Source: a virus | Strand: one strand, 5' to 3' | DNA: 64,000 bases | IMG/VR virus record: IMGVR_UViG_3300002854_000001 | Span: 6,398-70,397 of that record | Shown: positions 2,171 through 29,131 of the stretch, one piece after another | How positions within the stretch are numbered: position 1 is the stretch's first letter | Layout of the letters: each line of letters opens with the position of its first letter | Program-made: the position numbers and the translations under genes | The notes under the pieces: model-generated | The model's input: only the letters and a program-made list of their open reading frames with translations | Database searches by the model: none | Told to the model about the DNA's origin: nothing

Positions 2171-2766
2171 CAGCGAATCCCCGACCAGCAGTCCGTGCCT
2201 ACGAGCTCGGGCCGGCAGCCGTTCATGTAGCGCTCGAAGATCTTTCGACCCTCTGCCTGCAGCTCGCTCACCGAACCGTTGTTGACGATCTGGTGGTCGA
2301 CCAGGTCCGGATGGATGCCGGCTTCCGACTCGTGCTGCGCGGCCTCGCCCTGGAGGTAGACGTTGTCGGGGCGTGTGACCTCCACGACGATGCCACCAGC
2401 CTGCCGGATCAGCTCTGCCTCGTTGGCGTAGCGAACGTCGGTGATCACGGCCAGCGTCCGGCCCGTGCGGTCCCATTCGTCCAGGGCGCGTCGCACCCAG
2501 ATGTCGGGGTCAAGCACGTCGCGCACGCCCTTGCCGATGTTCTGCAGCGCCTTTCGGCGTGTGCAGCGCAGGACTGGCGAGTAGCCCTCCTTGCCATCGG
2601 CGGTGTGGAAGTGGTGCGACGGCTCACCCGCGATGATCGCCACGGCCTCCTTGAGCGGATCGGCGAAGGAGATCCTTCGGAAGCCGAGCCGGACAAATGC
2701 CGCGCCGAGGGTGTCTTTGCCCGCGTGGGCCTTACCTGTGATTCCTACCAAGGAAATTGGCTTCAT
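2170..2766 (-). CDS. Deoxynucleoside monophosphate kinase
   Basis: VGITGKAHAGKDT P-loop, SFADPLKE, VITDVRYANEA. Confidence 0.9.
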   Translation of the reverse strand: MKPISLVGITGKAHAGKDTLGAAFVRLGFRRISFADPLKEAVAIIAGEPSHHFHTADGKEGYSPVLRCTRRKALQNIGKGVRDVLDPDIWVRRALDEWDRTGRTLAVITDVRYANEAELIRQAGGIVVEVTRPDNVYLQGEAAQHESEAGIHPDLVDHQIVNNGSVSELQAEGRKIFERYMNGCRPELVGTDCWSGIR

Positions 2767-2986
2767 TGTTGTTTTTGTTGTTGAGCCAGTTGAAGAACCG
2801 TCGGATCAGGTAGCCCCGAGCGACGGAGACGATGGTGAAAACGCCGGTGATCCCGAGGTTTTCGTGAAAGCTCGTGGTCAGGTTCCAGATCGGATTGACC
2901 ACGAACTCATAGGTCAGCAGGGTCACGATGAACCCCACCGCGGTGCTGAAGATGGTCTCCAGGAGTGATTGACGCTTGGCTTGCAT
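2732..2986 (-). CDS. Small two-TM phage membrane protein
   Basis: MQAKRQSLLETIFSTAVGF..FTIVSVARGYLIRRFF pattern, common in phage nucleotide-metabolism operons. Confidence 0.7.
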   Translation of the reverse strand: MQAKRQSLLETIFSTAVGFIVTLLTYEFVVNPIWNLTTSFHENLGITGVFTIVSVARGYLIRRFFNWLNNKNNNEANFLGRNHR

Positions 2987-2991
2987 AGACC

Positions 2992-3747
2992 CTAAGTGGC
3001 TAGGCCGAAGAGGCTCATGTGCCACTTCTTGATGGTGTCTTCACGGGGCACGCGGGGGGCACGGAATGGATTACCAAACTCCGCTCTGAACTCCGCGGCT
3101 TTCATCACGTTCGGAACAATCAGGTCGTACACCGCACGTAGCGACCGCTGAACGTTCAGTGCGTGAATCGCGGCGACAACAGCAGCGTTGCGATTGGTAT
3201 AGGGCGAGGTGCCCGGCTTGAGCGTGACCTCGTGCGCACCGATCTGGCCCGCCTCGAGCGCGCGAAGCACGACATTTGCTGCGTGGAGGCAGGTTTCTGG
3301 CGTGTCTTCGTTCTCGATCAAGGCGACCGCAAGTGGGTGGCTCGTCCTGAGCGGCCGTATGCAAAGTTCGTCGATAGTCGCGTCCCCGGGAACTCCGGGC
3401 GGCTTGATCAGGGCCTGGCGCATGTTCGAGTACAGCCCTTCCGAGCTAACCTCCAGGAAGTACTCAGACAGATGGATGCCAAGCTGCGGCAGCCTGGCCC
3501 TCTCGTATCGCCGCTCCTCGAGAAGAGGCGCAACGCGTAGGTTTTCCTGCCCTTCGAGGTGCTGCGCGATAGCGATGATCTTGGCAGCCGGAGTAAACCA
3601 GTCTCCCGGTCTACGGGGTCCCCCGAAGAACCGTCGAAAAGCCGAGCGGCTTAGAACAAGCCGCTCTTCCTCAATGGCGGCCAGGGGCGAGGTGACGGTT
3701 GACCGGCTTCCGAGGTGGGGCTGTCCGACGAATGTCTCCCACATCAT
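2992..3747 (-). CDS. Hypothetical accessory protein; start uncertain (frame open to 4035)
   Basis: Long ORF with weaker GC3 bias; AGGA 7 nt before ATG 3747; C-terminus resembles an HTH. Confidence 0.5.
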   Translation of the reverse strand: MMWETFVGQPHLGSRSTVTSPLAAIEEERLVLSRSAFRRFFGGPRRPGDWFTPAAKIIAIAQHLEGQENLRVAPLLEERRYERARLPQLGIHLSEYFLEVSSEGLYSNMRQALIKPPGVPGDATIDELCIRPLRTSHPLAVALIENEDTPETCLHAANVVLRALEAGQIGAHEVTLKPGTSPYTNRNAAVVAAIHALNVQRSLRAVYDLIVPNVMKAAEFRAEFGNPFRAPRVPREDTIKKWHMSLFGLAT

Positions 3748-3901
3748 CACGATGTCCTGGAAGTCCCCGAGAGGGCGGGGCACAAGCCATGTGTACGGAG
3801 ACGCCGGCGAGGCGCGCCCGAACAGGTGGAAGCCCGGCAGCTCGACACGGGGCAGACGTGCACTCTCAAGCTCCCTCACGCGCTCAACCAGCGCCTCAGT
3901 A

Positions 3902-3923
3902 ACGCAGCCGCGAGCGGCTGCGT
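3902..3923 (-). terminator. Perfect 9-bp hairpin just downstream of the MazG-like gene
   Basis: ACGCAGCCG-CGAG-CGGCTGCGT; only a short T run follows. Confidence 0.35.
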
Positions 3924-3952
3924 CCCCAAGGACAGCGAGAGCGCGCCTTGGG

Positions 3953-4540
3953 TCAGCCCAGGACGGCAGCTTCCAGCGTCTCACGCTCGGCATCCAGGTC
4001 GCGTTGCAGGGCGCGGAACTGATCAAAGTCGCCACCGGGGTAGCGCTTGAGCAGTTTGGCCATGTTCACGGCTCGGATGTACGCCTGGGTGGCGTCAGCG
4101 TGTTTCACCGCCCCGAGCTCTCGCGACACCTTTTGGGCGACCTGGGCGAGTACCAGCACGGCTTCGAAGCCGGCGGGTGCACGCTCATAGCCGACCCAAC
4201 GCTTGGCGTGGTCGAGCAGGGTGTTGATGGTGTCCTTCAGCAGGGCTTCAGGACGGGTTGAGGAGAGGATCAGAGTGACCTCGCGTTCGACTTCGTCGTC
4301 GAACGTATCGAGGGTGACTTGAAGGCGATCCTCGATGACTTGCCGCAGCGCGACCTGGTAGAACTCGACGTCCCCCAGTTCCTCGATCGCATTCACACGG
4401 TCGGATGCCGCCTCGTACTCGTGACACTCGGTCGCGAGGCCGAGGATCGCGTGGGAGAAGTCCTTCGAGGGGTCGCCGCTGCGGTTGAACAGCTTACGGA
4501 CGAAGTCCGGATAGGCCGGCTGGGCCAGTTGATTGCTCAT
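3953..4540 (-). CDS. MazG-like nucleotide pyrophosphohydrolase
   Basis: HAILGLATECHE..IEELGDVEFY acidic metal-binding motif; NMAKLLKRYP. Confidence 0.8.
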   Translation of the reverse strand: MSNQLAQPAYPDFVRKLFNRSGDPSKDFSHAILGLATECHEYEAASDRVNAIEELGDVEFYQVALRQVIEDRLQVTLDTFDDEVEREVTLILSSTRPEALLKDTINTLLDHAKRWVGYERAPAGFEAVLVLAQVAQKVSRELGAVKHADATQAYIRAVNMAKLLKRYPGGDFDQFRALQRDLDAERETLEAAVLG

Positions 4541-5255
4541 TGTTTTTCTTCTTGTTGAGAGCGAGTTCGAAAGTGTAGATGAAGTCTGCGTCCAGATCCT
4601 TCATGTTGTCCAAAGCCCATCGGATGTACGACTTCGGGACCTCGGACATCGGCTGCCCCTTGTGCTTGCCGAAGGGCATGCTGTGGACGGCCATCGGCGC
4701 TTGACTTGCGTCAGCAAGCTGGCGCAGAGTCATCCCTGTGCGGTCGCAGATGTGCCGCGCGAGGTACAGCGCTGAGTAGATGTCGGACATCACTCGGTGT
4801 GCGTTCTCCGGCCTCGGAAGGCCGAGCGCGAACATCAGCGTCGCAAGCTTGTGGTCGTCGCTGTGCGGGTACAGCTTGCGCGCCCAGCGCAGCGTGCAGA
4901 CCTCCTGCGCGATGTTCGTGAAATACGGCGACAGGAACCGAGAGTCGAAACTGATCCGATGGCCGATGAGCACGATCGGATCGTCGATGTTGCGGCCGTA
5001 GCAGCTCGGATCATCGACGCTGAAGTACTCCTCGATCGTCGGAGCATGCTCGACGTCACTGTTCGTGAGCCCGTGGATTCCCGACGCGCTGGGCGAGATC
5101 AGCATCTGCGGGTCGATCAGACTCTGGGTCTCGGAGAGCACGTTGCCGAGCTCATCGATCTCGATCCAGCCGACTTCACAGACCTTGTCCTCGGGACCGG
5201 CGCCGGTTGTCTCCGTGTCGGCGACGAAGAACCTGACGTTGTCGGGGAGGCTCAA
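4494..5255 (-). CDS. DEDDh 3'-5' exonuclease (ExoX-like)
   Basis: VADTETTG, IGHRISFD, AHRVMSDI, C-terminal MPFGKHKG; TTG start overlaps the HNH stop (TTGA). Confidence 0.9.
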   Translation of the reverse strand: MSLPDNVRFFVADTETTGAGPEDKVCEVGWIEIDELGNVLSETQSLIDPQMLISPSASGIHGLTNSDVEHAPTIEEYFSVDDPSCYGRNIDDPIVLIGHRISFDSRFLSPYFTNIAQEVCTLRWARKLYPHSDDHKLATLMFALGLPRPENAHRVMSDIYSALYLARHICDRTGMTLRQLADASQAPMAVHSMPFGKHKGQPMSEVPKSYIRWALDNMKDLDADFIYTFELALNKKKNNEQSTGPAGLSGLRP

Positions 5256-5566
5256 GCGGCCCTCGCCCGGAGTTCGCCGCGCGCGCACTCGACCAGGTTC
5301 TTCCAGCGGTTGTCGCCGCGGTCGCCGTTCTTGTGAGTCACGATGCGACGCGGCCACTTGCCGGTTTGGTGCAGGACCGCGAGGCGGTGCTCGAGCGAGC
5401 GAACGCCGTCGATGCCGATGGTGCGGTAGCCCGCGGACTCCTGGCTGCCGGCGCGCTCGCCGACAGCGGAACGGTGGCCGATCTTCTCCTTCCACTTGAA
5501 GATGCCGGTGCGGGGGTTGTAGTCGAGGACCTGGCGAATGCGCTTCGCCGTGAGCTTTTTACTCAT
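5252..5566 (-). CDS. HNH endonuclease (HNH_3-type, no AP2 domain)
   Basis: YNPRTGIFKW, HRLA, VTHKNGDRGDNRWKNL; strong AAGGAG RBS. Confidence 0.85.
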   Translation of the reverse strand: MSKKLTAKRIRQVLDYNPRTGIFKWKEKIGHRSAVGERAGSQESAGYRTIGIDGVRSLEHRLAVLHQTGKWPRRIVTHKNGDRGDNRWKNLVECARGELRARAA

Positions 5567-5586
5567 CTTTTTCTCCTTTTGAGAAT

Positions 5587-5606
5587 GGGAGGCCCGTGGG
5601 CCTCCC
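5587..5606. terminator. GC-rich hairpin between the SSB-like and HNH genes
   Basis: GGGAGGCCC-GT-GGGCCTCCC; no clear U-tract. Confidence 0.35.
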
Positions 5607-5627
5607 GTGTTCAGATCACCGTAGCAA

Positions 5628-6506
5628 TCAGATCTTGGCCGGCAGCGCGCCCAGGATCTTCAGCTTCGTCCAGTTGTTGTTGCCCTTGGACGCGAGTTCG
5701 CGGACGAAGAACAGCGTGAATGGGTCGTCCGGCAGCTTGAAGCCCGGCAGGCCCATAGCAACGCAGCGAGCCTTGTCGTTCAGCTCTTGCTGGTAGCGGC
5801 TGAAGGCCGGGATCGACGATTCGCTGAGCGTGATCTGGACCACGGTGCCCAGCGGGCCATCCTCGCCGTTCTCGCAGGCGAGCAGCGCACCGCCCACGTC
5901 GACGAAGCGGCGGCACTTCGCGTTGTCGAAGTCCTCCTCCTTTTGCAGGTACTGGACGTACTCGGCAACCGGCTTGCCTGCCCACCCCTTCAGTTCATCG
6001 CCGATGACCGAGTCGATGGTCTTGCCATCCTTCGAGTAGGCGACGAAGTCCTTGGTGGAGGCCGACTGCTCGCCGGGGGAGACCTCGAAGTGGTCGTCCC
6101 ACGAGATCATGCGGACCTGCGCCCAGCGGCCGAGGTCGGCCTTGTCGCCGCTCGATTCGATGATCGTGCCGTTGTTGCCCTTGAAGACGCGGTAGTTGCC
6201 GAATGCGAAGTCGCTGGCGCCCTTCATCGCCTCGACCTCCTTCTGGAACTCCTTGGCGCGCTTCGCGGCGTCGTTCATCGCAGCGACCGTACCGGTCGTT
6301 GCTTTCACGAGCCCCGTTGCAGCGGGCGCCACGGGAGCGTCGGCGGGCGCTGCTGCTGCGGGTGCCGCTGCGACCGCGGAGGGGGCGGCTGCCGAATCGG
6401 CGGTGCCGGCCGGGGACTCGACCACTGCGGTGTCGCCGCCGGTGTCTGCCGAGTCGACGGCGTTGGTGTTGGGTTCTTGTTCGAAGGTGGGCTTTCTCAG
6501 TGCCAT
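5628..6506 (-). CDS. Hypothetical replication-module protein, possibly ssDNA-binding
   Basis: Phage-like codon use, AAGGA RBS, Ala-rich disordered N-terminus; function inferred from position only. Confidence 0.55.
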   Translation of the reverse strand: MALRKPTFEQEPNTNAVDSADTGGDTAVVESPAGTADSAAAPSAVAAAPAAAAPADAPVAPAATGLVKATTGTVAAMNDAAKRAKEFQKEVEAMKGASDFAFGNYRVFKGNNGTIIESSGDKADLGRWAQVRMISWDDHFEVSPGEQSASTKDFVAYSKDGKTIDSVIGDELKGWAGKPVAEYVQYLQKEEDFDNAKCRRFVDVGGALLACENGEDGPLGTVVQITLSESSIPAFSRYQQELNDKARCVAMGLPGFKLPDDPFTLFFVRELASKGNNNWTKLKILGALPAKI

Positions 6507-6544
6507 GGTTTTATTTCCTTTTCGATTTCACAAACATCTGTCGA

Positions 6545-9421
6545 TCATTCCTGGCCCTTGGACCGGAACATCTCGACGCCTTCTGCCGCCAGCTTTTCAA
6601 GGCTGAAACGGTAGACCTTGGACGCCTGGTTCGTCCTGAGGGACGAACGCAGGCAAATACGATCGACGACGGCATCAAATTTCGCCATCGCCACGATGAA
6701 AGCATCCGCACTGGAGAAGAGGGGTGTGAAGCCCTTACGCTTGTTCCAGGCGAAGTACTTGATGAACGACTCACGCATCAGGATCTCGATGTGGCCATCG
6801 AGCACGATGTACTCATAGCCCTCGCGCAAAGCGAACTCGCTGTCTGGCAGCTCCGTCCTGCTGATGAGCGACATGTCGTTCAGGGTCTTGGCGGCCTCAT
6901 TGACCGCGTGGACTGCAACCTCCGACTTGTTGGTGTAGATGGCGTCGCGCAAACGATCGATGTCTGCGCGCATGGCATCCCCGAAAATGACCCCGAGGAC
7001 ATCGTCGAGAAAGTTCAGACCTCCGAGAACGACGGCAAGGTTGTAGACCTGGCGGTCGTGTACTTTTCGGTCGAGAGAGGCCCGCAGTTCTGCGATCAGC
7101 GGGATCAACGCCTGCTTGCGGGACTCGATCGTCTCGGTCATCCCCGAGCGAAGAAGGGCCGCGCCCAGCTTCGGCAAGAAATCGACACCCGCTTGTGCCG
7201 CGTAGAAGTGTTCGGAGTGGGCGTCCTTTCCAGCAGAGGTGAAGGAAACGGGCAGCGTGCGCTGCACGATCGCTGTTTGCGTCTCCTGAGCCTCGGCCAT
7301 GAAGACGATCGGAGCGGAGTACGAGAACTGGGTGACATCGCGGAAGCTGCTCGAGGCGCCACCCCGCGAAATGCCCCCAGTCGCGCCCATCGCCTGGTTG
7401 TAGGAGAGGCGAAAGGTCTGCAGCAGCAGGTCCGTGCGAACGGGGCCGAGCTCTGTGGGCTTGTACTCGTCCAGGATCAGCGGGACCGACGCGCTTCCCT
7501 GGCAGGCTGCCTTCAGCATGAAGGGTGTGAGGGACGCCCCGCACCCATACTCCAGCGGTGTCGTCGCGTTGTGCCACAACCTTGCGAAGAGCTTGGTCGT
7601 CATGGTTTTGCCGGAGCCCGCTGTGCCATTGGGATGCAGCAGAGGGAACTGCTGGAAGGCCGTCTGATAGAACTGCTTGTGCAGTGACGAGACGAACCAG
7701 CCGAGCATCTGTGCCACTGCAAGTGGCTCGTTGATGTTGAAGAGGTGGCTCAACCACTCGCGACTGTCCGGCGTATCCGATATTGGTTCGCACCTGTGTA
7801 CGTCGCTCTTGAACACGGGCTCGTTGGAGAGCCTTGCTCGAAAGCGGTACGCTACTTCTTCATTGGCTGACAGCACGCAGTCCGGTGCGGCCCAGATGAC
7901 GTCGCGCTGGATTCGGTCCGTCACCTGCGGGTTCTGAACGATGTCGAGGCCTTCGCGATGTACTGCGTAGATCTCTCGGTTCGCCTTCTTTGCGGCGGTG
8001 TCGAGTGCGGTCAAGATCGCTCCTGCTTGGATGTCGTTGCCCATGAACGTGCCGCCATATGCAGCGAACGTGTCATGCATCTTGGCTCGTGACTTGAATG
8101 TTTCGAGCGAGACGTAGCCGCGCGAGTGCTTGATGCCGCCGGCCAGGACGTCGCATTCGAATCCGATGTGCATCCGGTCTTCGACAGAAAGCATCCGAGT
8201 CGGCTTGGTAAGCGCGATGTGGCTCAACGGCTTGAGTCCGTCACCGGTGCGCAGGAAGATGCCCTGCTTGTGGATCATGACGCCGGCCATCTGCCCGCGG
8301 TTCGCAAGGTCGATCTCTGCCTGCTGGTCCTCGGTCAGCGTTTCCTCGTCGTCCATCGGAACGCTGCCTTCAAGGCTTCGGTCCACGATGTCAAGGTCAC
8401 CTGATGGTGCGCCTGGCTCCATAAGGGACCGGAGCCCGCCGGCAGAGAATGAGTAGCATGGGTTGTCGTGGGTGTAGTCCCACATCCGCCGCAACTCTTC
8501 CTTCCGCTTTCGCGGTGTGTTGTAGCGCTTCGAATCGCTCTGGTGCCCCCTGCACAAGCCTTCTGCAGCCTCGACAAGCTGGTCGGCCGATTTTCCCAGG
8601 GCGTTGGCTGCGATGGCCAACTGCATTGAGATCTTCTGGAAGCCGGTACCAGGCATGATCCCGTCGCCGGCCATCAGTCGCACCATCGACGCAGGGAACT
8701 CCCCCCTGAACTTGGCCAGCAGCGCGGTGTCGGCGCCGGCTTTCGCCTGGCGCTTGACCGCTTCGTTGATCTTCGCACTCGCCTTGACGAAGAGTGCGGA
8801 CAGGCCCATCGCCGTTGTCGGGGGATCGCGGTCGGGCTCGGCGCGGGTTGCTCCACACACCTCGGCGTATAGCTCAGGCGTCATCGCCAGCGCTTCGTCC
8901 AGGGTGATCGGCACCTTGTACTTGCCGTTCTCGCGCTGGATGTTCGGCGTCCGCCACATCCGACCCTTGCGTCCGGTGTACACGCGCAGGTCGAGGGTGT
9001 CGACAACCAGCTCGAGTGCCATCTCCTTGTAGATGTATGGCAGGCTCTGCGTTCCGGTTCGCGGCACCTTCGGCATGAAGATGTCTTCGGGAACTTCACA
9101 GTGGAAGCCGCGGCCGCCGGTGGCGTACAGGCGCAACGCCTTGAGGTTGACGCCTTGCTCTTCCTGGAGCTTGAGCAGGAATTTTTGGAATTCGGGAATG
9201 GTCTCGTCGACCGCTTCCGCATCCCAGTCGAAGTACAGCGGCCCGCTGTACTTCATCTTGTTGTACTCCTCTCGCCCCCACGTTGCGTCAGGGGCGGAGT
9301 GTGCATCGAGGACGGTCACGAAGGCTGGGTGCAGCTCAGCGATGACCTTCTGTCGATGCTCGGCGAGTGCTTCGACCCATGGGTCTTCGCCGCCGGTTTT
9401 CTGATACCAGAGGAAACTCAT
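6545..9421 (-). CDS. Primase-helicase fusion (AEP primase/PrimPol N-terminus plus P-loop helicase)
   Basis: LYFDWD, TGGRGFH, MWRTPN (AEP motifs); NGTAGSGKT Walker A and LILDEYK Walker B. Confidence 0.85.
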   Translation of the reverse strand: MSFLWYQKTGGEDPWVEALAEHRQKVIAELHPAFVTVLDAHSAPDATWGREEYNKMKYSGPLYFDWDAEAVDETIPEFQKFLLKLQEEQGVNLKALRLYATGGRGFHCEVPEDIFMPKVPRTGTQSLPYIYKEMALELVVDTLDLRVYTGRKGRMWRTPNIQRENGKYKVPITLDEALAMTPELYAEVCGATRAEPDRDPPTTAMGLSALFVKASAKINEAVKRQAKAGADTALLAKFRGEFPASMVRLMAGDGIMPGTGFQKISMQLAIAANALGKSADQLVEAAEGLCRGHQSDSKRYNTPRKRKEELRRMWDYTHDNPCYSFSAGGLRSLMEPGAPSGDLDIVDRSLEGSVPMDDEETLTEDQQAEIDLANRGQMAGVMIHKQGIFLRTGDGLKPLSHIALTKPTRMLSVEDRMHIGFECDVLAGGIKHSRGYVSLETFKSRAKMHDTFAAYGGTFMGNDIQAGAILTALDTAAKKANREIYAVHREGLDIVQNPQVTDRIQRDVIWAAPDCVLSANEEVAYRFRARLSNEPVFKSDVHRCEPISDTPDSREWLSHLFNINEPLAVAQMLGWFVSSLHKQFYQTAFQQFPLLHPNGTAGSGKTMTTKLFARLWHNATTPLEYGCGASLTPFMLKAACQGSASVPLILDEYKPTELGPVRTDLLLQTFRLSYNQAMGATGGISRGGASSSFRDVTQFSYSAPIVFMAEAQETQTAIVQRTLPVSFTSAGKDAHSEHFYAAQAGVDFLPKLGAALLRSGMTETIESRKQALIPLIAELRASLDRKVHDRQVYNLAVVLGGLNFLDDVLGVIFGDAMRADIDRLRDAIYTNKSEVAVHAVNEAAKTLNDMSLISRTELPDSEFALREGYEYIVLDGHIEILMRESFIKYFAWNKRKGFTPLFSSADAFIVAMAKFDAVVDRICLRSSLRTNQASKVYRFSLEKLAAEGVEMFRSKGQE

Positions 9422-14343: not shown

Positions 14344-14609
14344 TTCTCGGACTCCGGGGGGATCTCGGTGAGCCCGCCGCGGGCGGTCAGAGTCCACACC
14401 CGGCCTGGCATGGCGTTGAGTGCGTCGATCGATGGCGACCCATCGATCAGCAGGCCCAGGATTGCGCCCTTGTCAGTTGGAAGATCGACTTCCTTGATTC
14501 GGACGGCACTGCGCCAAACGGGCTCTTCCTTCTTCCCGTTCTCGTGTGCGTCGCCCTGGGTGGCGAAGAAGCGGGCTTTCTCGGTGTCGGTTCGGACGTA
14601 GAACTTCAT
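14340..14609 (-). CDS. Hypothetical protein
   Basis: MKFYVRTD; ATGA overlap. Confidence 0.6.
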   Translation of the reverse strand: MKFYVRTDTEKARFFATQGDAHENGKKEEPVWRSAVRIKEVDLPTDKGAILGLLIDGSPSIDALNAMPGRVWTLTARGGLTEIPPESEK

Positions 14610-14917
14610 GATGTCGTGGTCGGTTGAGGTGCGGGCGCGACGCCCGTGATGTGTGTGGGAAGTGCCCGCCACCATCGCTTCGCGTCGGACATGCGATAGA
14701 GCAGGCGCTCAGCGGTGGACATGCCCCCGGCCTTGAACTGAGGCTCGAGGCCGCCGTGGAAGCGCATGAGTGCGCGTAGCCGATTCCCCGTGGTGCCGAA
14801 CCTTTCGGCGATCTCATTCAGGTTGAACAGTGGCTCTCGTGGCTTGCCCGTCGGGGCGGTGGTGAGGGTCAACCGGCGGCCACGGCTTCCGATGTTTGCG
14901 CGGGGGATGAAGCTCAA
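14606..14917 (-). CDS. Small HTH-like DNA-binding protein
   Basis: FNLNEIAERFGTTGNRLRALM helix-turn-helix-like segment. Confidence 0.5.
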   Translation of the reverse strand: MSFIPRANIGSRGRRLTLTTAPTGKPREPLFNLNEIAERFGTTGNRLRALMRFHGGLEPQFKAGGMSTAERLLYRMSDAKRWWRALPTHITGVAPAPQPTTTS

Positions 14918-15228: not shown

Positions 15229-15419
15229 TGAAAATGACTGCCTCGCGAGGTGCGCAGCTGGTCTTCGACGACGAACGCGGTTCGATGGGCCTGGAACGGG
15301 TCCTGCTGCTTCGTGGCGAGCACTGCACGATCGACCTGCGCGAGGTAGGTCTCATCGAGATCTGGCTGCGGCCGTGGCTGCGGCTTCGCCGTTGTCGGGG
15401 TCTGTTGGTGAACGGTCAT
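15225..15419 (-). CDS. Hypothetical protein
   Basis: ATG 15419 with AAGGA RBS overlapping the upstream stop. Confidence 0.55.
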   Translation of the reverse strand: MTVHQQTPTTAKPQPRPQPDLDETYLAQVDRAVLATKQQDPFQAHRTAFVVEDQLRTSRGSHFQ

Positions 15420-16468: not shown

Positions 16469-16711
16469 TTATTCCTCCAGGTGTATGACGAGGCCGCCCA
16501 TCAGCGGCTCGCATGCGATCAACTCATCGCGTGCGGGCCCAGGTTCGCAGCAAACCAGGCGTCCTCGGCTGTTCATGAGCGCGATCTCTCGCCACTCGCC
16601 GGGACGCTGCCAGTAGTGGTTCTTGGCGTCATCGACGTTGTCGGGGTGTTGATAGATCCGACACTGGGATCCGATCTCGGTGAAAGCAGGAGCGATGTAG
16701 ACGGTACCCAT
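16469..16711 (-). CDS. Hypothetical protein
   Basis: Abuts neighbours; typical codon use. Confidence 0.6.
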   Translation of the reverse strand: MGTVYIAPAFTEIGSQCRIYQHPDNVDDAKNHYWQRPGEWREIALMNSRGRLVCCEPGPARDELIACEPLMGGLVIHLEE

Positions 16712-19403: not shown

Positions 19404-19728
19404 GTCTGAGCTCCTGGGTGTTGAGACGCATGCCCGACAGCGCCCTGGCCTCCACACGGAAGCCAAGGCGTTGTCGGGGTGCGCGGGGTTGCCCCGATAA
19501 CCGAACGCACGCCCACCAGCCCCACGGAGGATTCCGCGGCCGCGAGGTGGGTCTAGACGTTGTCGGGGTGCGTGCTGGGTTGCCCGTTACCTGCCAGCCG
19601 CAGGGGCGGGAAAGGGTGGAATGGCGCGGTCAACGCATCGCTCGGGGGCGCACACCATTCCTTCGACAGGGCTCCGCACGGGCTCGGATGTCCTGCCGCA
19701 TGTCAAAAACCGCCCCCGAGAGCGTTTG

Positions 19729-20085: not shown

Positions 20086-20339
20086 CGCTTGCTGTCGGGG
20101 TTGAGGCCATAGGCCGATGAGAAGGTGGCTTGACTCAGGTAGCTCTCGTCTCGGACGACGACCCCGTGTCGCATCTCGTGCACGTAGATCAGGCCGCTGT
20201 CACCCCACTTGCTTTCGTAGATGCGGATGCCGTTGTCGGGGTTGCCAAAGGTTGCGTCGAGCTTCGCGCACACATCGTTCAGCTCGCACATCGCTCGGTA
20301 GACAGCAACGGCCTGGGCCGGGCTGAGGATCTTGCTCAT
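20082..20339 (-). CDS. Hypothetical protein
   Basis: ATGA overlaps on both sides. Confidence 0.6.
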   Translation of the reverse strand: MSKILSPAQAVAVYRAMCELNDVCAKLDATFGNPDNGIRIYESKWGDSGLIYVHEMRHGVVVRDESYLSQATFSSAYGLNPDSKR

Positions 20340-20856: not shown

Positions 20857-20861
20857 GGCCC

Positions 20862-21607: not shown

Positions 21608-21909
21608 GGCTGATGCTCCAGTTCCTTGCTTGTGGTTTTGGCGTCGATGTTGTCGGGGTCATAGATGACCTCGAGCCAGATGGCGAGGCGGTCGACCTGG
21701 TCGCCGGCGCCGCCGTATTCGGAGACGAGGTTCTCGCCGCGGACCCGCCAGACGGGCCCCATGTCGACCACGATCCCGCCGCGCTCGGTGCGCAGGTGCT
21801 GGTCGTGCTCGAAGACGGTCACGACCTCCTTGCCGTAGGCGTGGCCGGCGGTGCCGTTGGTGGTGCCGATGATGCGGCAGCGTTGGCCGGGGCGGGTCGG
21901 TTCAGTCAT
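21604..21909 (-). CDS. Hypothetical protein
   Basis: Coupled overlaps. Confidence 0.6.
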   Translation of the reverse strand: MTEPTRPGQRCRIIGTTNGTAGHAYGKEVVTVFEHDQHLRTERGGIVVDMGPVWRVRGENLVSEYGGAGDQVDRLAIWLEVIYDPDNIDAKTTSKELEHQP

Positions 21910-22265: not shown

Positions 22266-22291
22266 GTGGGGGTGTGTGAAGTGGGCGAAGC

Positions 22292-22744: not shown

Positions 22745-22924
22745 GGGTGTAGGAAGGGGGAGGGGGAATGGAATGGAAAGGCCACGCCGCGACGTGACCC
22801 TGACGCGAGGGTCGACATAGACGTTGTCGGGGCGCGTATGCTTCTGGCTTTGGAAAGAGCCGCAGGAACAAGTCCGAAAGGGCTCTGCCTAAAATTTCAT
22901 GCGCTATTACGGAGTTAGGACACT

Positions 22925-24316
22925 ATGACGGCCGAAATCTCGATCGGATCCGATCGACTCGAGCGTTCGAAATTCTTGAATGCCCTTGAGGAAAATATTC
23001 GTACGTTGGCTGACGTTCCGTCCGAATTTTTAGCGACCCCACGCGCGATTTCGGTTGATGCCAAGTGGGGCAATGGAAAAACTTGGGTCGCCAAGGCCTT
23101 GGTAGCAAGAGCGCAAGGACAGGGAGCGCATGTCGTTTATATCGACGCGTTTCGCCATGACCACCACGACGATGCTTACGCAGTAATTGCATCGGCAGTT
23201 TTCGATGTTTTGCGTCCAAAAGGAGAGCAAAAGCGAAAATTCTTGTCGGCCGCTGGTGCGGTCTTAAAAAATACCGCTTCAGTCGCAGCTAAAGCTGCCA
23301 TATCGGCTGGAGCTGGGATGATCGGGGTAGCCAACGGGTCCGAGGCGATAGCTAAAATTCTACAAGATGGTGTTGAAAAGGGGGTGGAGGGATTCAGCGA
23401 GGAAGCGGTCGAGTCGCTTTTCAGGAAATACTCAAAAACCGAAGAGGTGCAACGGCAATTTATGAATTCGTTGAGCGAGATCACGAGTGGCTTGCAAGCC
23501 CCGCTTGTGGTCGTAGTTGATGAGTTAGACCGATGCCGTCCGTCCTTTGCTCTCGAGGTTCTGGAAAGAATAAAACACATTTTCGATGCTGAAAACACAG
23601 TGTTTGTGTTGTTCTGGAATTCGACCTCGATTCACGAATCGATACGCCACACATACGGAGCCAAAACGGATGCTGAGCAGTATCTATCCAAGTTCATCGC
23701 ATTCAATGTTCCCTTGGAACTGCCAGTTTTGTCGAAGCGCGTAAAGCGTCGAAGCATACGTTTTCAGGGATTTATTGCCGCGATTGTGAAGGATGTATTT
23801 CCTGCTGAAGGTGATCATTTTGGCTTCATTCAAGCTATGGCAGAGGGCTGCGAGGCTCTTGATCCCAGTCTTCGTCAAATTCAAATAGCGCTCCAGATTG
23901 CCAATCGCATCCATGCCTATAAGAAAGAGTGGTTTGAAGTAACCACATATCTTTGCCTGCTGAAGGCAATCGACGACGGAAGATTTTCTCGAGTTTGTAG
24001 GTTGGAAGATCTTCAGTGTGGAATTGAGGCAAATCAATTCACCGATCGGCTCGGAGTTGATCTTGCGAAAGGCGTGGAATTGCATACGGTCCACGCGCTG
24101 TGCGAATACGTTTCGCGAAGCAAGCGGTATTCTGCGCTGGAAACTGGGACTGAAAGACCAACGATTCACGAGCAGGCTGTACTTGAAATTGTTGATAGCG
24201 GTCGCGCAGTCAGTTATTTCAGAGACTTTGCAGCCGATATGTTTCAAGGTCTGATTTCGAAAGAGCACTCGGGTGCGCTAGCAAATCGCAAACCGGCATC
24301 TACTTCTGGAGCGTGA
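22925..24316 (+). CDS. KAP-family P-loop NTPase (accessory, low GC, counter-oriented)
   Basis: ISVDAKWGNGKT Walker A, YIDAF, VVVVDELDRCRP Walker B, LERIKHIF, YLSKFI; visibly AT-richer. Confidence 0.88.
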   Translation: MTAEISIGSDRLERSKFLNALEENIRTLADVPSEFLATPRAISVDAKWGNGKTWVAKALVARAQGQGAHVVYIDAFRHDHHDDAYAVIASAVFDVLRPKGEQKRKFLSAAGAVLKNTASVAAKAAISAGAGMIGVANGSEAIAKILQDGVEKGVEGFSEEAVESLFRKYSKTEEVQRQFMNSLSEITSGLQAPLVVVVDELDRCRPSFALEVLERIKHIFDAENTVFVLFWNSTSIHESIRHTYGAKTDAEQYLSKFIAFNVPLELPVLSKRVKRRSIRFQGFIAAIVKDVFPAEGDHFGFIQAMAEGCEALDPSLRQIQIALQIANRIHAYKKEWFEVTTYLCLLKAIDDGRFSRVCRLEDLQCGIEANQFTDRLGVDLAKGVELHTVHALCEYVSRSKRYSALETGTERPTIHEQAVLEIVDSGRAVSYFRDFAADMFQGLISKEHSGALANRKPASTSGA

Positions 24317-24569
24317 CGTTGTCCGCGGACACCCGCTCGCCGTTCTCGTCGACGAACACGCGGCCCGCGGCGTCGTAGACCGTGACCTGACCGTCCCAGT
24401 CAACGTCAGTGCCACCCTCGTAGTGCAGCTCGAGGCGGCCTCCAACCCAGGTGGCACTTCCGACTCGAGCGACGCCCGTGAGGCGCTCGAGGGTTCCGAC
24501 AATGGCGATGTCGGGGTTGTCCTTTCGGACGATTCTGTCTGTCATTTGCTTTTCGTCGCTGCTGGACAT
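24300..24569 (-). CDS. Hypothetical protein
   Basis: Phage-like codon use; convergent with the KAP gene. Confidence 0.55.
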   Translation of the reverse strand: MSSSDEKQMTDRIVRKDNPDIAIVGTLERLTGVARVGSATWVGGRLELHYEGGTDVDWDGQVTVYDAAGRVFVDENGERVSADNVTLQK

Positions 24570-24658
24570 GAAGAGCCTGCCCGGTAGTTGCCGGGAAGGC
24601 GAACGGGGAAGCCTGTGCAAGGGCTAGACTTCCGTACGGGAACCCCGTGGAGGCAGGC

Positions 24659-25090
24659 GTGGACGATCGCTCACTGATCAAGATTGATGACCCGAAGGCA
24701 GAGGCAATATTCGCCATGCTGGTCCGCGTAGCCGACGCTGCGCCGGAGATAGCGCTCGAGTTTGAGAAGCAGGGCTTCCGGATCTCTGGTGAGCTCGAGC
24801 AAGCCTACATCGAGGCTCTTGAACCCTCCGATCGCCGACCTATGCCGCCGAGAAAATCGAATCCAGACGGCGGGGCGTCGCCTCTGGTGTGGTGCTACGC
24901 GATGGCCAAAGAATCCCGGTCGGCTATTCGTGGCCGCGGCACGGCCAGCCGCAAGGCTCTCACCCGATGCACCTCAAAATCCCCATGGATGTCCGTAGGC
25001 GTTTCGTGGAGATCGTGCAAGAAGGGAGGGTGCGTGAAGCTGCAGAATTTGGGCTGCACGACGCTCCGTTGCCGACACGCACCCACCTGA
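24659..25090 (+). CDS. Hypothetical accessory ORF (possible 5' half of a frameshifted gene)
   Basis: GGAGG RBS before GTG 24659. Confidence 0.4.
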   Translation: MDDRSLIKIDDPKAEAIFAMLVRVADAAPEIALEFEKQGFRISGELEQAYIEALEPSDRRPMPPRKSNPDGGASPLVWCYAMAKESRSAIRGRGTASRKALTRCTSKSPWMSVGVSWRSCKKGGCVKLQNLGCTTLRCRHAPT

Positions 25091-25443
25091 ACAAGGTTCT
25101 CGCAGAGTCGGGGTTTCACAAGACGTTGGTGAGCGGCAAGTCCGAGAGCGTGCGGGCGGGTCGAGGCGAGTTTGATTTCGCTTTGTCGCTGATCGTGAAG
25201 CCGACGCGATTCGTTCCGATGGATATTGATGCTCAGCTTTTCTTTGTCAGGAGAGGCGCCGGCACTGACGGCGCTGCGTCGATTCTCGCAATCGACACCC
25301 AGCACTTCATGTCCGGGTATGGCTACAGATCATCGATGAGCGTTCCGCAGGCTGCGTTGGCGGTTAAGGCGCAGATCTCGCTTGCGAACCTCATCGTCGA
25401 TCGGATTGAGTTGGAGCTCGAAGCTGGTTGTACTTCGCAATGA
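24889..25443 (+). CDS. Hypothetical accessory ORF (possible 3' half of a frameshifted gene)
   Basis: Protein-like ORF overlapping the previous one in another frame; no clear RBS. Confidence 0.45.
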   Translation: MVLRDGQRIPVGYSWPRHGQPQGSHPMHLKIPMDVRRRFVEIVQEGRVREAAEFGLHDAPLPTRTHLNKVLAESGFHKTLVSGKSESVRAGRGEFDFALSLIVKPTRFVPMDIDAQLFFVRRGAGTDGAASILAIDTQHFMSGYGYRSSMSVPQAALAVKAQISLANLIVDRIELELEAGCTSQ

Positions 25444-25933
25444 GCTCGAGGAAAGGCATGTTGTCTTCGAGGTTCTCCGTTGAGATTCCATCGCAGGCAT
25501 TCCAAGCCGCCGCCATTCGCGTTAGGTTGGCGCGCTGCCGCTCGGTGACCTGCTCGCCGTTCATGAGCAGCGACATCCACCAGCGGCCGTTCTCGTCGAG
25601 CAGGGCGTAGCTGTTCGCATCGCCGTTTTCACGGAAGTGAAGCCGGCCTGCTGTGTGCACGGTGTGCTCTCGCGGGATCTCCGTCGTGGGTGCGTCCGCT
25701 GCAGGGCTGGTCAGCAGGTGCTGGTACTCCGGCAGCAGGCCCATGGCGATGGTGGGGTCCACGACGTCGTGGTTGTCGACCTTCTGGCCGAGGAACTCGT
25801 GCTGCGTGGTGTAGCGGATCGAGACAACGCGCCCGTCTTCGTCCTTGGTGGTGAGCTGGGCGACCACGGTGCATAGGCGCGGGTGCTTGCCGCGGGACCA
25901 GTACTGGGTTCCGATGAGAAATCGATGCTTCAT
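25391..25933 (-). CDS. Hypothetical protein
   Basis: 180 aa, phage-like codon use. Confidence 0.65.
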   Translation of the reverse strand: MKHRFLIGTQYWSRGKHPRLCTVVAQLTTKDEDGRVVSIRYTTQHEFLGQKVDNHDVVDPTIAMGLLPEYQHLLTSPAADAPTTEIPREHTVHTAGRLHFRENGDANSYALLDENGRWWMSLLMNGEQVTERQRANLTRMAAAWNACDGISTENLEDNMPFLELIAKYNQLRAPTQSDRR

Positions 25934-26145
25934 TGGGTTGGGTGCGATGACGCGCGCAGCGACCGTGCTGTCGTGCAGGGTGGGAATCGCGGATCAGGGG
26001 GTTGCCCGCGACTTAGATGCCAACGTGGACGTTGTCGGGGCGCGAGGTAGGGCGGGTGGCGAGCGAGGGGCGCACGCGTCTATGATTCAACAGGCGGCCG
26101 CTATCGGCCAGAAGCGGCCACTCGCCCCTCTACCTTAACCTGCAC

Positions 26146-26469
26146 ATGATGTTGTATCGCCTCTACTGCTCAAGTGGAAACACGGTGGGTGTTGACGAGT
26201 ACATCTGCTACTCGGAAATCGGAGCTGACGGGCTCTGGTTGCGCTATATCGAGATCAGGTCAGACGGCATGGCACTTCGCTACGACCTAGAACATGCCGC
26301 AGACCAGTACGGAGTGCTTCCAGAGGGGGAATGGCGAGAGGCGGAATCGTCGCTGCGTGAATTCGGCACGGTATCCAGCATTTCCGCCAAGTTGTTTGAG
26401 GCTGTCTGGTCGGTCACCCAATGTATGAATGAAGGCGACGAGCGTCCGCAGATCTCTACATTTCAATGA
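26146..26469 (+). CDS. Small acidic accessory protein, cassette-like
   Basis: Lower GC; flanked by palindromes; YSE..G..RYIEIRSDG..ISAKLFEAVW. Confidence 0.6.
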   Translation: MMLYRLYCSSGNTVGVDEYICYSEIGADGLWLRYIEIRSDGMALRYDLEHAADQYGVLPEGEWREAESSLREFGTVSSISAKLFEAVWSVTQCMNEGDERPQISTFQ

Positions 26470-26930
26470 CTGCTTTGCGCACAAGCCAATGTCTGCTTCG
26501 GGCCCGAAGCTGACCTAGCGGAGGCCGGCCGCGAGAACCGCGACCAGCCTGGAATTCGCGCCGGCCCCGAGTTCTGGGAGGCCGGCTGTACCTGATGCCA
26601 CAGGCTTGTGCGTCATTTCTGGCGTCGTCCCTGACCAGACACATCGGGCAGGCGACAGGATCTCAGGGTAAGGCGGTCATCTAACCTCCGGTTGGGTATG
26701 CCGGGCTGCACCAGGTTCGTCGTAGGCGCTCAGTCACGGCGGGGCCTCCAGCGCGGGAGGGTTGATCGGGGCGTCACAGACCGGTGGACCCGACAACGGC
26801 GAGGGCAGCCTCATCTGCGGAGGCCGGCACGTTGCCGTTGTCGGGGCCGGCACTTGCGTGACAGCAATCGGGGTGGTCGCCGAGCGGCGATACTCGGTTC
26901 ACTGGCAACCGCTCTTGCGAAGGAAAAACT

Positions 26931-27536
26931 GTGGATTCAGGGACTGCGGGTCTGCTCGGCGTTCTGCTCGGTTCCTCCATTGCGGCTGCAACCAAGTGGG
27001 TCGAGCATGCGGTGACCGCCAGGAGGGATGCGCGTTACCTCGCGACCGTGCTGTCCGTTCAGCTAGAGCGACTTGTAATTGCTTGCTCTGAAGTCGCTAT
27101 GGACGTCGGAGAGCTCGATGCGCATGGAAACATGTCTCCGCGCGTCCAGGCACCGGAACTGAGGCTTGAGTCAATCCAAGGAAATTGGCGCGCCTTGCCG
27201 GCAGAACTTATGCACGCGGTCCACCTGCTCCCCTACAAACTCGATCTTGCCTCAGCTGTCGCGAGCGCAGCATATGAGAACGATATGCCACCGGATTGGG
27301 ACGACTTCTACGAGTCTCGACAGTTGGAGTACGCGCGAGTCGGCTTGGAGGTTGACAGGGTCGCTAGCGCGCTTAGCCGCCACTTCAAATACTCGCGGCC
27401 GGGTTGGCCGGGTTGGAACCCCGTTGTGGCTCTCGAGGGCGTCGTAAGGGGGATCGAAGTTCAGCGCGAGGTGCGCGAAGCAGCGCTCCATGTGCCACGA
27501 GAGCACGCTCCAAGCCAGGCATTCCCGGTCCGCTGA
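26931..27536 (+). CDS. Accessory protein with N-terminal membrane anchor
   Basis: AAGGA RBS before GTG; TAGLLGVLLGSSIAAAT followed by a helical body. Confidence 0.7.
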   Translation: MDSGTAGLLGVLLGSSIAAATKWVEHAVTARRDARYLATVLSVQLERLVIACSEVAMDVGELDAHGNMSPRVQAPELRLESIQGNWRALPAELMHAVHLLPYKLDLASAVASAAYENDMPPDWDDFYESRQLEYARVGLEVDRVASALSRHFKYSRPGWPGWNPVVALEGVVRGIEVQREVREAALHVPREHAPSQAFPVR

Positions 27537-27541
27537 CCAGC

Positions 27542-27814
27542 GAATTGGCACTCCGCGCTGCAGTCGACTCGGCTAAGTAGTTGTCGCACAAGGGAAAGTG
27601 GTCAGAAATTGGGTCAGAAAAGTGGCACTCGGAGGATGCAAGTTGGAGGGGGGTACCCCCGGCTGTAGAGAAGTGAGGGAAAGTGGGGTTTTTCTTGAAA
27701 CTGCTCCAGAGAATTGGCACTCACCAAATCGTTCCCCGAAGGATAAAAACAGGTACTTTCTCAACTGTGACAACCACTTGCGATCGAAAAATGCTTGGCA
27801 AGGTGCCACTTTTT
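27542..27814. repeat. Non-coding region with short direct/inverted repeats and a GGGGGTACCCCC palindrome (candidate origin or packaging site)
   Basis: GAATTGGCACTC x2, AGGGAAAGTGG x2, GGTCAGAAA x2, AAAAGTGGCAC direct and inverted; AT-rich right part. Confidence 0.5.
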
Positions 27815-27835
27815 TCGAGCTCTTTTGCCTAGTTT

Positions 27836-28162
27836 TTAAGCACAGTCTCGTTCAGGCCAGGGCAGAAAGAGATAGGTCGGCACGGTCGAGAGGTCCAGCT
27901 TGGCCTTCCCGTGACCGTCACCGCGGGAAACTAGCAAGCCGTCCGGATGGCGCTTTGTGGCCAGCACAGATCGAGGCGGGTCGCCTGCCTCTTCATCTGT
28001 CATCCAGCCTGGACGGTTCCGCACCCAAAGTCGACACGCGCTGGCCAGCTCGGCAACCATGTTTTTGCTGCAGATGAAGAGGGCTGATTCGCCCGGCTGC
28101 AGCTTCGCCAACCTTGTCGGGTAGCCGAACATTTCAACCCAGTCAGCACGATTTCCACTCAT
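27836..28162 (-). CDS. Hypothetical protein
   Basis: GAGGA RBS; ATG overlaps the upstream TGA. Confidence 0.55.
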   Translation of the reverse strand: MSGNRADWVEMFGYPTRLAKLQPGESALFICSKNMVAELASACRLWVRNRPGWMTDEEAGDPPRSVLATKRHPDGLLVSRGDGHGKAKLDLSTVPTYLFLPWPERDCA

Positions 28163-28341
28163 CAAAGCCATCCTCGAATTCGGTTGCAAACAAGGGCGGC
28201 GAGTCTGCCCAGCGCAGAGCGGGGCGTCGATCCCGGGCTGAATGTCTCCCGGTACAGCCGCACCGACGGTACGTCGACTGCAGGGCGGGCGCGCGGCTTC
28301 ACGGCCACGTAGGCCAGTCCGCTGTCTCTCAGGTCACGCAT
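28162..28341 (-). CDS. 59-aa hypothetical protein
   Basis: AAGGA RBS; fills the gap with coupled ends. Confidence 0.4.
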   Translation of the reverse strand: MRDLRDSGLAYVAVKPRARPAVDVPSVRLYRETFSPGSTPRSALGRLAALVCNRIRGWL

Positions 28342-28600
28342 GCCGGCGTCTTCCTTTCTGCGCCTGCTCGGCCTTCAGCCGGGCAAGGTAGTCGAGAACA
28401 TGGCCGGGCGCGCCAACGTTGCCGTCGGGCTCGAATGGCCGGTCCTCGTCGTTGTTCGGATCGCCGTTCAGACCCAGCTGCCAGCGCAGGTCGAACAGCT
28501 CGATGCGCATCGACTCGATGAGCCGCGCGTCTTCGCGTCGTTGGTGCTCGAGGCGCGCGACCGCCGCCTCCAGCTGTGCTTTCGTTCTCGGTTTGGACAT
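28334..28600 (-). CDS. Hypothetical coiled-coil protein
   Basis: GGAG RBS; MSKPRTKAQLEAA. Confidence 0.6.
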   Translation of the reverse strand: MSKPRTKAQLEAAVARLEHQRREDARLIESMRIELFDLRWQLGLNGDPNNDEDRPFEPDGNVGAPGHVLDYLARLKAEQAQKGRRRHA

Positions 28601-28833
28601 GGCTCCGCCCCTGTGCCTGGTTGGCAGGCACTAACAAAAACTGTTGAATGGGTCGCCGACCCAGGGCCCTCGCCCGCTGCGCGGGCTCGGCCCCGCCAAT
28701 GTCATCGGCATAGCCGCCGGTGCCGTGCACCGTCTTCGGCACTGCCCACGTCACGAGCCCCGTCAACGACAACCCCGGCGCCGCTGCGCGCCGCCGGGTC
28801 GCCGCGCTGCGCGCGGCTCGTCAACGGCCCAGT

Positions 28834-29076
28834 TCAGAACGCCGATCGAGTTTCAATTCGGTACCGATTCGCATCGGCGTTGTCGGGGGCATGGCGCGCG
28901 ATCCACTTCGCCGCCACCACCATGGCCATCGGCATCGCCGCTGCGCGCCGACGCAAGGCATCGAGCCTGGCGCAGGCACGGGTCAGGGCGCCGAACGGGG
29001 CCTGGCCGCGGCCGACTGCGCGGCTCACGTCGGCGACGTCGTCCTCGGCCATGGCAATGGCCCTGTCAATGTCCAT
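28834..29076 (-). CDS. Hypothetical protein
   Basis: GAGGAG RBS before ATG 29076. Confidence 0.55.
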   Translation of the reverse strand: MDIDRAIAMAEDDVADVSRAVGRGQAPFGALTRACARLDALRRRAAAMPMAMVVAAKWIARHAPDNADANRYRIETRSAF

Positions 29077-29131
29077 GTCGCGCTCCTCGCCCTCGACGTT
29101 GTCGAGGACCAGCCCTTCGACGTTGTCGGGG

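Follow-up and report, generated by a model that had tools for sequence, protein, structure and literature searches.

To our knowledge, short polar words dispersed along the genome occur in few phage groups, and a function has been shown only for those of cluster A mycobacteriophages. In that group the words are called stoperators, and have been described for L5 (gp71), Bxb1 and the TipsytheTRex repressor (PMC9283540, PMC6550527). Outside the actinobacteriophages, T1-like phages (Stevie, TLS, and T1) carry 22-bp polar repeats (PMC4319613, PMC11447400) and cyanophage N-1 has an 11-bp repeat (PMC4916379). Here, we describe a 13-bp word, GNCGTTGTCGGGG, in a 64-kb stretch of viral DNA (the window), corresponding to bases 6398-70397 of the 73,558-bp IMG/VR record IMGVR_UViG_3300002854_000001. 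We refer to this phage as G000. Its genome has two arms: an early/middle arm, with genes on the - strand, and a late arm, with genes on the + strand. An earlier note on the window had proposed that the word forms a stoperator-like system. We find that it is a real, strongly selected, lineage-wide polar DNA signal.

Results

We counted the word in the window and in the full record. There are 13 exact matches to GNCGTTGTCGGGG in the window, all on the + strand, with none on the - strand (start positions in Table 1). In 100 dinucleotide shuffles, the mean count was 0.02 and the maximum was 1. The earlier note had listed 14 copies. Thirteen of these are exact, at the positions it gave, and the remaining copy, at 21646, deviates by one base. 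Its sequence, GATGTTGTCGGGG, begins GAT and has lost the C of a G-N-C triplet that precedes the 10-bp core, GTTGTCGGGG; the core itself is intact. When the core alone is counted, the window has 14 copies and the full record of 73,558 bp has 15, the additional copy being at genome position 3079, outside the window. All 15 are on the + strand and fall between genome positions 3079 and 35519. The late arm of G000 has no core copy when the whole record is counted. Hence, the claims of single-strand orientation (13 of 13 exact and 14 of 14 core copies in the window), of a late arm free of copies and of rarity by chance are all borne out. The core is by far the most over-represented 9-12-mer in the G000 genome, and no other word comes near its copy number. 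Copies with one mismatch are scarce; reversed ones are found in the early arm at window positions 30340, 28770, 26800, and 1010. In the literature, the word occurs only within unrelated primers.

Five close relatives, all syntenic with G000, were compared. These are the proviruses G001 and G002 (82% primase identity), G003 and G005 (57-58% primase identity), and a prophage of Variovorax paradoxus ISL-3, spread over two contigs. Note that 'six phages', below, refers to the IMG/VR records G000, G001, G002, G003, and G005 together with the Variovorax prophage. Since G001, G002, G003, and G005 carry tyrosine integrases, the lineage is temperate. Known phages are only distantly related (Vibrio SHOU24, and Pseudomonas PMBT3 and Lana, with 22-30% amino acid identity) and megablast of the early arm against known phages returned no matches. 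Among sequencing runs, three DNA runs contained less than 7% of the searched words, in assembled contigs covering small parts of the region, and no RNA run contained this phage. Conservation in relatives is evident: all five carry the 10-bp core, in 11 to 30 copies (G001, 15; G002, 11; G003, 23; G005, 30; Variovorax prophage, 16). The word is unchanged down to 57% primase identity. In 110 sites pooled from the six phages, the triplet preceding the core reads G in 93%, then any base (A in 52%), then C in 92%. Beyond the 13 bp of G-N-C-GTTGTCGGGG, the same sites show no conservation, except for the codon periodicity of the antisense strand.

Individual sites differ in how far they are kept. The copy in the exonuclease gene (5235), spanning codons 3-7, is present in all six phages. 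That in the deoxynucleoside monophosphate (dNMP) kinase gene (2359) is shared by G000, G003, and G005, and is decaying in the others, including the Variovorax prophage. The primase gene copy (8811) is found in G000, G001, G002, and the Variovorax prophage, and not in G003 or G005. Some sites are 100% kept inside flanks of 70-80% identity. Furthermore, nine copies are within 12 kb of DNA that G000 has in common with no relative. Hence, density is maintained, and not position alone. Four of the 15 sites are no more than 35 nt from homology breakpoints; the same breakpoints occur in three related genomes and coincide with gene ends. This hints, weakly, at a recombination site for module junctions. 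Exact copies extend to wider replication-module loci, with four in L071, three each in L064, L067, and L069, two each in L068 and L070, one in L066, and none in L065. No word of the same kind was found in PMBT3.

We also compared the phages with host DNA. The Variovorax genome contains 48 core copies. Sixteen are in the prophage contigs, leaving 32 in about 6.5 Mb elsewhere. Similarly, 8-mer sub-words of the word occur 3-7 times per 100 kb, in 400 kb of host DNA, compared to 32-56 times in the early arm. Given this rarity in host DNA, we rule out a Chi, KOPS or uptake word of the host. The Chi-like site of the earlier note, in its host-word form, is dismissed for the same reason, as Variovorax DNA contains few copies of the word or of any of its 8-mer sub-words.

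Our gene calls place seven of the 14 window copies in coding sequences and seven in intergenic DNA. Six of the former encode the tripeptide P-D-N and one encodes P-T-T. The earlier note had counted eight and six, with P-T-T twice; copies do fall in both classes, and the six P-D-N copies stand, but the second P-T-T copy does not. The preferred frame, C-CCC-GAC-AAC-GNC, is the cheapest in a high-GC genome. The codon-preserving shuffle suggested by the earlier note was run on early-arm coding sequences of G000. In 300 synonymous-codon shuffles, the mean count was 1.65, with a maximum of 6, compared to the seven copies observed. Moreover, the tripeptide P-D-N is itself enriched 6-8 fold in early-arm coding sequences, with 6 occurrences in G000 (0.9 expected), 11 in G003, and 10 in G005, against expectations of 0.9-1.5. 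Because synonymous shuffles fall short, and P-D-N itself is enriched, coding does not explain the word, as the earlier note had held. We conclude that the word is selected at the DNA level and shapes proteins.

Gene boundaries do not account for the placement of sites. Distances to the nearest start codon preceded by a ribosome-binding site are the same for sites and for random positions. Scans for consensus promoters and terminators found no more near the sites than in shuffles. Hence, a tie to starts, promoters or terminators is ruled out. Note that the copy at 29119 does abut a stop codon, as had been reported, and that the stop is that of a 195-aa gene. A second element, GGGTTGCCC, was considered as a partner box and ruled out, being present in G000 only.

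The word is polar with respect to transcription. In all six phages, it is on the template strand of the surrounding genes. Pooling the early arms gives 83 template-strand and 17 coding-strand copies (binomial p 1e-11), at 3.95 per 10 kb. The pooled late arms have 8 template-strand copies and 1 coding-strand copy, a density of 0.55 per 10 kb. G003 and G005 have a few late-arm copies, and there the word switches strand where gene direction switches. Of 19 coding-strand copies, 11 are intergenic and in arrays. The largest array, in G005, has 13 copies within 2.2 kb, with three tandem repeats and three forward copies facing a 350-bp AT-rich stretch. In G003, four copies within 230 bp are arranged back to back, two plus two, in a 430-bp gap. 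The Variovorax prophage, G001, and G000 have 2-5 reversed copies, partly degenerate, among G+C-rich hairpins upstream of a conserved 88-aa gene. We infer that one geometric rule could cover template-strand and array copies alike: the GGGG end would face RNA polymerase, either elongating towards the site or positioned at a promoter downstream.

Two of these regions have further features. In G005, where motif copies flank the AT-rich stretch (49800-50320; L032 9800-10320), a perfect 16-bp inverted repeat, ATTTCACATTGTGGAA and its complement, brackets one copy. The region is a candidate origin or strong early promoter. The module upstream of the 88-aa gene (window 28610-28700, with homologues in G001 and L038) has a G+C-rich hairpin, centred on GCGCAGCG, followed by TTGTTAGTGCC. 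Its last part is a short stem, just 5' of the ribosome-binding site, with compensatory changes between phages.

We then considered what might read the word. Since every relative keeps the word, and the host lacks it, the reader is probably a phage protein. Three candidates had been put forward in the earlier note: the CI-like protein, a helix-turn-helix (HTH) protein encoded at 14606 (p103), and the product of an open reading frame (ORF) at 2992 (p347). The CI-like repressor gene (30885-31796, + strand), encoding an HTH region and an S24 peptidase, is divergent from the first early gene. Neither G003 nor G005, the motif-richest phages, encodes a homologue of the repressor. In addition, the cI-early operators differ between close relatives that share an identical 13-mer, being TTAGAC in G000 and G001, WAAGAC in G002, and GTCTGTGC in the Variovorax prophage (operator stretches in Table 1 and at G001 34260-34370, G002 43120-43180, and L038 12400-12560). 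CI is thus excluded as the reader. Alongside operator divergence, CI identity drops to 38-68%; judged from the sequences, this is textbook diverging immunity inside one lineage. There is no exact motif copy in the gap between cI and the first early gene, where a motif-like GTTGACGGGTA overlaps a -35-like hexamer before cI. The reader may be a lysogen-expressed protein other than CI. Small double-HTH proteins hold the CI position in G003 and G005; hhalign against the CI N-terminus gave E 0.07, which is not significant. As for p103, it is absent from G003.

Six proteins of unknown function are kept in all six phages: p347, p292, p156, p152, p100, and p205. One of them, p347, is found wherever a locus has exact copies, and is missing from the two that have none, L065 and PMBT3. 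Note that L065, which lacks p347, keeps p152, p292, p156, and p205. Across these loci, no other candidate, and no other conserved protein of unknown function, follows the motif in its presence as p347 does. The protein has an isoelectric point of 9.2, conserved acidic and histidine residues, and 21 database members, limited to this phage lineage. Its AlphaFold model has a predicted local distance difference test (pLDDT) score of 83.8 and a predicted template modelling score of 0.71. Searches of the PDB and AlphaFold clusters, using Foldseek and VIA-align, found no convincing match to this model, only a four-helix bundle of generic type at the C-terminus, and the fold may be new. The ESM Atlas was uninformative for p347, and PDB sequence profiles gave nothing useful for p347, p292, the MazG-like protein or p156.

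A second candidate, p152, is modelled as a winged helix, with pLDDT 77-92 for residues 1-70. Its closest structural matches are Fur, PadR, ArsR, and MarR (Foldseek probability 0.95-0.99, E about 0.05), and a putative recognition helix, NFVYGWL, is conserved. The p152 family has at least 168 metagenomic members, always directly upstream of PolA.

Table 1. Motif copies, related elements and candidate readers in the window
Feature	Position	Strand	Remarks
Motif copy GACGTTGTCGGGG	2359..2371	+	within dNMP kinase gene; P-D-N on - strand
Motif copy	5235..5247	+	5' end of DnaQ-like exonuclease gene
Motif copy	8811..8823	+	within primase gene; P-T-T
Motif copy	15388..15400	+	intergenic, 16 nt past stop of DUF7227 gene, at homology breakpoint
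Motif copy	16634..16646	+	within 80-aa ORF; P-D-N
Motif copy	19467..19479	+	intergenic; first of tandem pair, spacing 89 bp
Motif copy	19556..19568	+	intergenic; second of tandem pair
Motif copy	20229..20241	+	within 102-aa ORF; P-D-N
Variant copy GATGTTGTCGGGG, core intact	21646..21658	+	within 101-aa ORF; P-D-N
Motif copy	22820..22832	+	intergenic; 150-aa early gene on one side, opposite-strand KAP NTPase gene on the other
Motif copy	26028..26040	+	intergenic; DNA found in G000 only
Motif copy	26834..26846	+	intergenic; reversed one-mismatch copy nearby at 26788-26800
Motif copy	28876..28888	+	near 3' end of small conserved ORF flanked by 195-aa and 88-aa early genes
Motif copy	29119..29131	+	adjoins stop codon of 195-aa early gene
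Reversed degenerate copies GTTGACGGGG, ATTGGCGGGG	28691..28770	-	with G+C-rich hairpins, upstream of 88-aa gene
Motif-like GTTGACGGGTA	30852..30862	+	contains TTGACG, a -35-like hexamer ahead of cI; kept in 4 of 4 CI-bearing phages
TTAGAC / GTCTAA operator set	30763..30838		gap between cI and first early gene; outside motif system
p347, conserved basic protein, candidate reader	2992..4035	-	presence tracks motif
p152, winged-helix protein, candidate reader	1590..2048	-	candidate by fold; directly upstream of PolA gene
p103, small basic HTH protein, candidate reader	14606..14917	-	missing from G003

G000 is a siphovirus with a genome of 73.5 kb. The late arm encodes small and large terminases, portal, protease, major head protein, a 1444-aa tape measure, and a 2831-aa central fibre. 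The early/middle arm encodes PolA with a 5'-3' exonuclease domain, a separate DnaQ-like exonuclease, and an Mre11-like protein, together with a 958-aa primase that has a P-loop part, SNF2 helicase, and ATP ligase. Genes for nucleotide metabolism (dNMP kinase, MazG, and thymidylate synthase) and for proteins of the DUF7227 and DUF7220 families are also in this arm. An N4-like system, with hairpin promoters and a virion RNA polymerase, was considered and ruled out; the 2831-aa protein is the central tail fibre, and the phage is a siphovirus.

Several features of these genomes are recorded in passing. A KAP family P-loop NTPase gene (22925-24316, + strand) has a low GC content, of 55%, and runs against the early-arm direction. 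No motif copy is inside it and one is 93 bp upstream. It is probably a lysogen-expressed defence or exclusion gene. The longest ORF for the exonuclease gene (4494-5495, - strand) has 333 codons. The relatives begin about 85 codons later, three codons ahead of the conserved motif copy, and the 333-aa ORF is probably over-extended. In G000, the Rad50-like gene beside the Mre11-like gene looks truncated or replaced, and thymidylate synthase is there instead. No integrase was found in the G000 record, unlike the relatives. At the right end of the record are IS110-family and IS3-family (rve) transposase genes (L041 1460-3529; genome 71459-73528). In G003 (L012-L016), the 'direct terminal repeat' annotated by IMG/VR is a 127-bp end overlap, and the record is better read as a circular assembly with arbitrary ends. 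In the distant relatives L065 (15917-17257) and L066 (780-1274 and 5153-5659), there is an intein within ThyX, and HNH endonuclease genes are inserted around the primase gene.

Discussion

What is directly observed is a polar, phage-specific and conserved site that is under selection at the DNA level, and the question is what such a site might do. The explanation that we favour, with a probability of roughly 0.4, is that the word would be the binding site of a phage-encoded protein, other than CI, that acts on early-arm transcription in a stoperator-like manner. Briefly, a protein of this phage lineage would recognise the asymmetric GNCGTTGTCGGGG in double-stranded form and, where the DNA is transcribed, oncoming RNA polymerase would run into the GGGG end of the site. 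At internal promoters, or AT-rich regions, copies in both orientations would form arrays. The bound protein would then act on early/middle-arm transcription in an orientation-dependent way. Most likely, it would be a roadblock or silencer of the stoperator type and, less likely, a factor handed to polymerase. A polar roadblock of the stoperator kind is the simplest form of this proposal. We favour a duplex-binding protein, acting on early-arm transcription, because the arrays are in regulatory DNA and sites follow the polymerase-facing rule. The temperate lifestyle, and confinement of the word to the arm with constitutive-type promoters, argue in the same direction. In addition, because arrays with both orientations occur in intergenic AT-rich or promoter-like DNA, a duplex-binding regulator fits better than an RNA signal or a nick site.

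A number of observations weigh against this explanation. About half of the sites are within genes, with no enrichment at gene boundaries or promoters, unlike the stoperators of L5. The main early promoter, beside cI, is overlapped by no exact copy, and its operators are TTAGAC. The late arm is nearly site-free, whereas cluster A phages have sites in both arms. Degenerate copies are nearly absent, which would equally suit an enzyme with an exact recognition site. The correlation between p347 and the motif has only two negatives, both being the most distant relatives. Finally, the genes for p347 and p152 are in the middle of the early arm, and would be silent in a lysogen unless they have their own promoter. 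A role in the lytic phase, such as temporal shut-off or insulation, therefore fits better than prophage silencing. Hence, the description of the word as stoperator-like, in the earlier note, is partly upheld. The word is a phage-specific, strand-polar, DNA-level signal that follows transcription, but it is not mainly intergenic, the late arm of G000 is empty, and CI is not the reader. A fuller version of the favoured explanation would make the word an independent, betaproteobacterial, polar barrier: p347, separate from CI, would read the 13-mer facing RNA polymerase, and control or insulate the whole early arm, including newly acquired genes. Taken with all its parts, this version is doubtful.

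The best surviving rival is that the word is the site of a strand-specific enzyme of phage DNA metabolism. This could be a nickase, as in T5, phiKMV, and tf, or an enzyme for priming or loading. The polarity would arise since only one strand tolerates a nick, or initiation, relative to transcription. T5-type nicks are in one strand, at a consensus. The preponderance of the exact word over one-mismatch variants is as expected for an enzyme, and site positions ignore gene boundaries. The phage has a T5-like replication module (PolA with 5'-3' exonuclease, DnaQ-like exonuclease, dNMP kinase, thymidylate synthase, ATP ligase, an Mre11/Rad50-like pair, primase, and SNF2 helicase). Furthermore, p347, with its conserved acidic and histidine residues and no known fold, tracks the motif. 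However, no nuclease fold was recognised in p347, and known nick sites do not form dense arrays, in both orientations, in intergenic AT-rich DNA. Lagging-strand priming, or T5-type nicks, would also be expected genome-wide, whereas the late arm is almost empty. We consider this rival unlikely.

Alternatively, the words could be iterons of a replication initiator, for example the 958-aa primase-helicase. In phage P4, the alpha protein provides an analogy for a primase-helicase as initiator, and the primase here does carry a P-loop helicase part. Arrays by AT-rich DNA would then mark the origin, and dispersed polar copies would be secondary sites, co-oriented with forks leaving it. The array in G005, with 13 copies in 2.2 kb and three convergent copies on each side of the 350-bp AT-rich stretch, is in keeping with this model. 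Similarly, the arrows point, genome-wide, to the region where the arms diverge. On the other hand, the G000 window has no comparable array, and G003 has two separate points of convergence. Late-arm sites are 7 times rarer, although forks would cross both arms, and both L065 and PMBT3 have the primase yet no word. Iterons are quite unlikely on this evidence.

A third possibility is a signal in RNA. Early transcripts would carry CCCCGACAACGNC, for an RNA-binding factor involved in antitermination, processing or stability, or the non-template strand would be read as RfaH reads ops. The strict sense orientation, within transcribed DNA, is consistent with this, and reversed copies downstream could pair with forward copies of the same transcript. 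The arrays of reversed copies, in promoter-upstream or AT-rich DNA, are not, and neither is the overlap between a motif-like element and a -35-like hexamer. We also found no link to 5' leaders, gene starts or terminators, and no NusG-like or known RNA-binding domain among the proteins scanned, a set with part of the small ORFs. An RNA signal is distinctly improbable. A borrowed host polar word (Chi, KOPS or an uptake sequence), or a by-product of codon usage, is rejected: short polar words do exist in bacteria, and the favoured frame uses preferred C-ending codons, but Variovorax paradoxus ISL-3 has few copies outside its prophage and few 8-mer sub-words, the observed count is never attained in codon shuffles, seven copies are outside genes, P-D-N itself is enriched, and the late arm, with the same codon usage, has none.

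The layout known from cluster A mycobacteriophages recurs here in an unrelated, Gram-negative, temperate lineage, in which the word bends protein sequences, survives deep divergence, and is uncoupled from the classical CI switch of the same genome. The phages therefore offer a clean system in which to ask if phages in general rely on orientation-dependent barriers. The lysogen Variovorax paradoxus ISL-3 can be cultivated for such work, and there is a short list of candidate readers, one of which has no known fold. Should the words prove to mark nicks or priming instead, they would be relevant to a long-standing problem, the purpose of T5-type interruptions.

Comparison with known systems places the word more precisely. 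Chi and KOPS are, like the word described here, short, exact and strand-polar, with arrows that reverse at a defined point in the replicon. Unlike those 8-base words, which are host-genome-wide, the 13-mer is 50-100 times denser in phage than in host DNA and is confined to one arm. The ops element, used by the NusG paralogue RfaH, is in the 5' leaders of long operons. Here, the sites are dispersed through genes, and no NusG-like domain was seen in the proteins scanned, which included part of the small ORFs. Localized single-strand interruptions are known in T5, phiKMV, tf, and LUZ24-type phages. These share with our case a strand-specific consensus that is repeated along the genome of a phage encoding its own ligase and PolA. 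They differ in that nick sites are not known to cluster in inverted arrays, and in the lytic lifestyle of the phages that have them.

Cluster A stoperators are closer. In each system, an asymmetric word of 13 bp is repeated nearly exactly, 15-30 times per genome, and keeps one orientation with respect to transcription; the carrier is a temperate siphovirus whose two arms are transcribed in opposite directions. However, half of the copies here are inside genes (7 of 14 in the window) and unrelated to gene boundaries, whereas most cluster A sites are in short gaps between genes. The late arm has hardly any sites. At the main early promoter there are TTAGAC operators and no exact copy of the word, and a motif-like GTTGACGGGTA is found ahead of cI. 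Immunity depends on a CI-like repressor that two motif-rich relatives lack, and its operators differ from the word and change fast. These phages have a betaproteobacterial host. Moreover, one and the same word persists across phages with only 57% protein identity, whereas in cluster A the word varies from one immunity group to another. We do not file the word as a member of the stoperators, because it fails on intergenic placement and on the identity of its reader.

The nearest non-actinobacterial parallels are the T1-like phages and the cyanophages A-1 and N-1. Their repeats are, like the word, asymmetric, dispersed (16-43 per genome), and oriented with transcription. The authors of those studies invoke stoperators, with the role there unestablished. 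Those repeats are mostly intergenic, AT-rich, longer, and in lytic phages; the word is G+C-rich, as often genic as intergenic, and in temperate phages. Overall, we regard the word as a variant of the dispersed polar repeats that phages carry.

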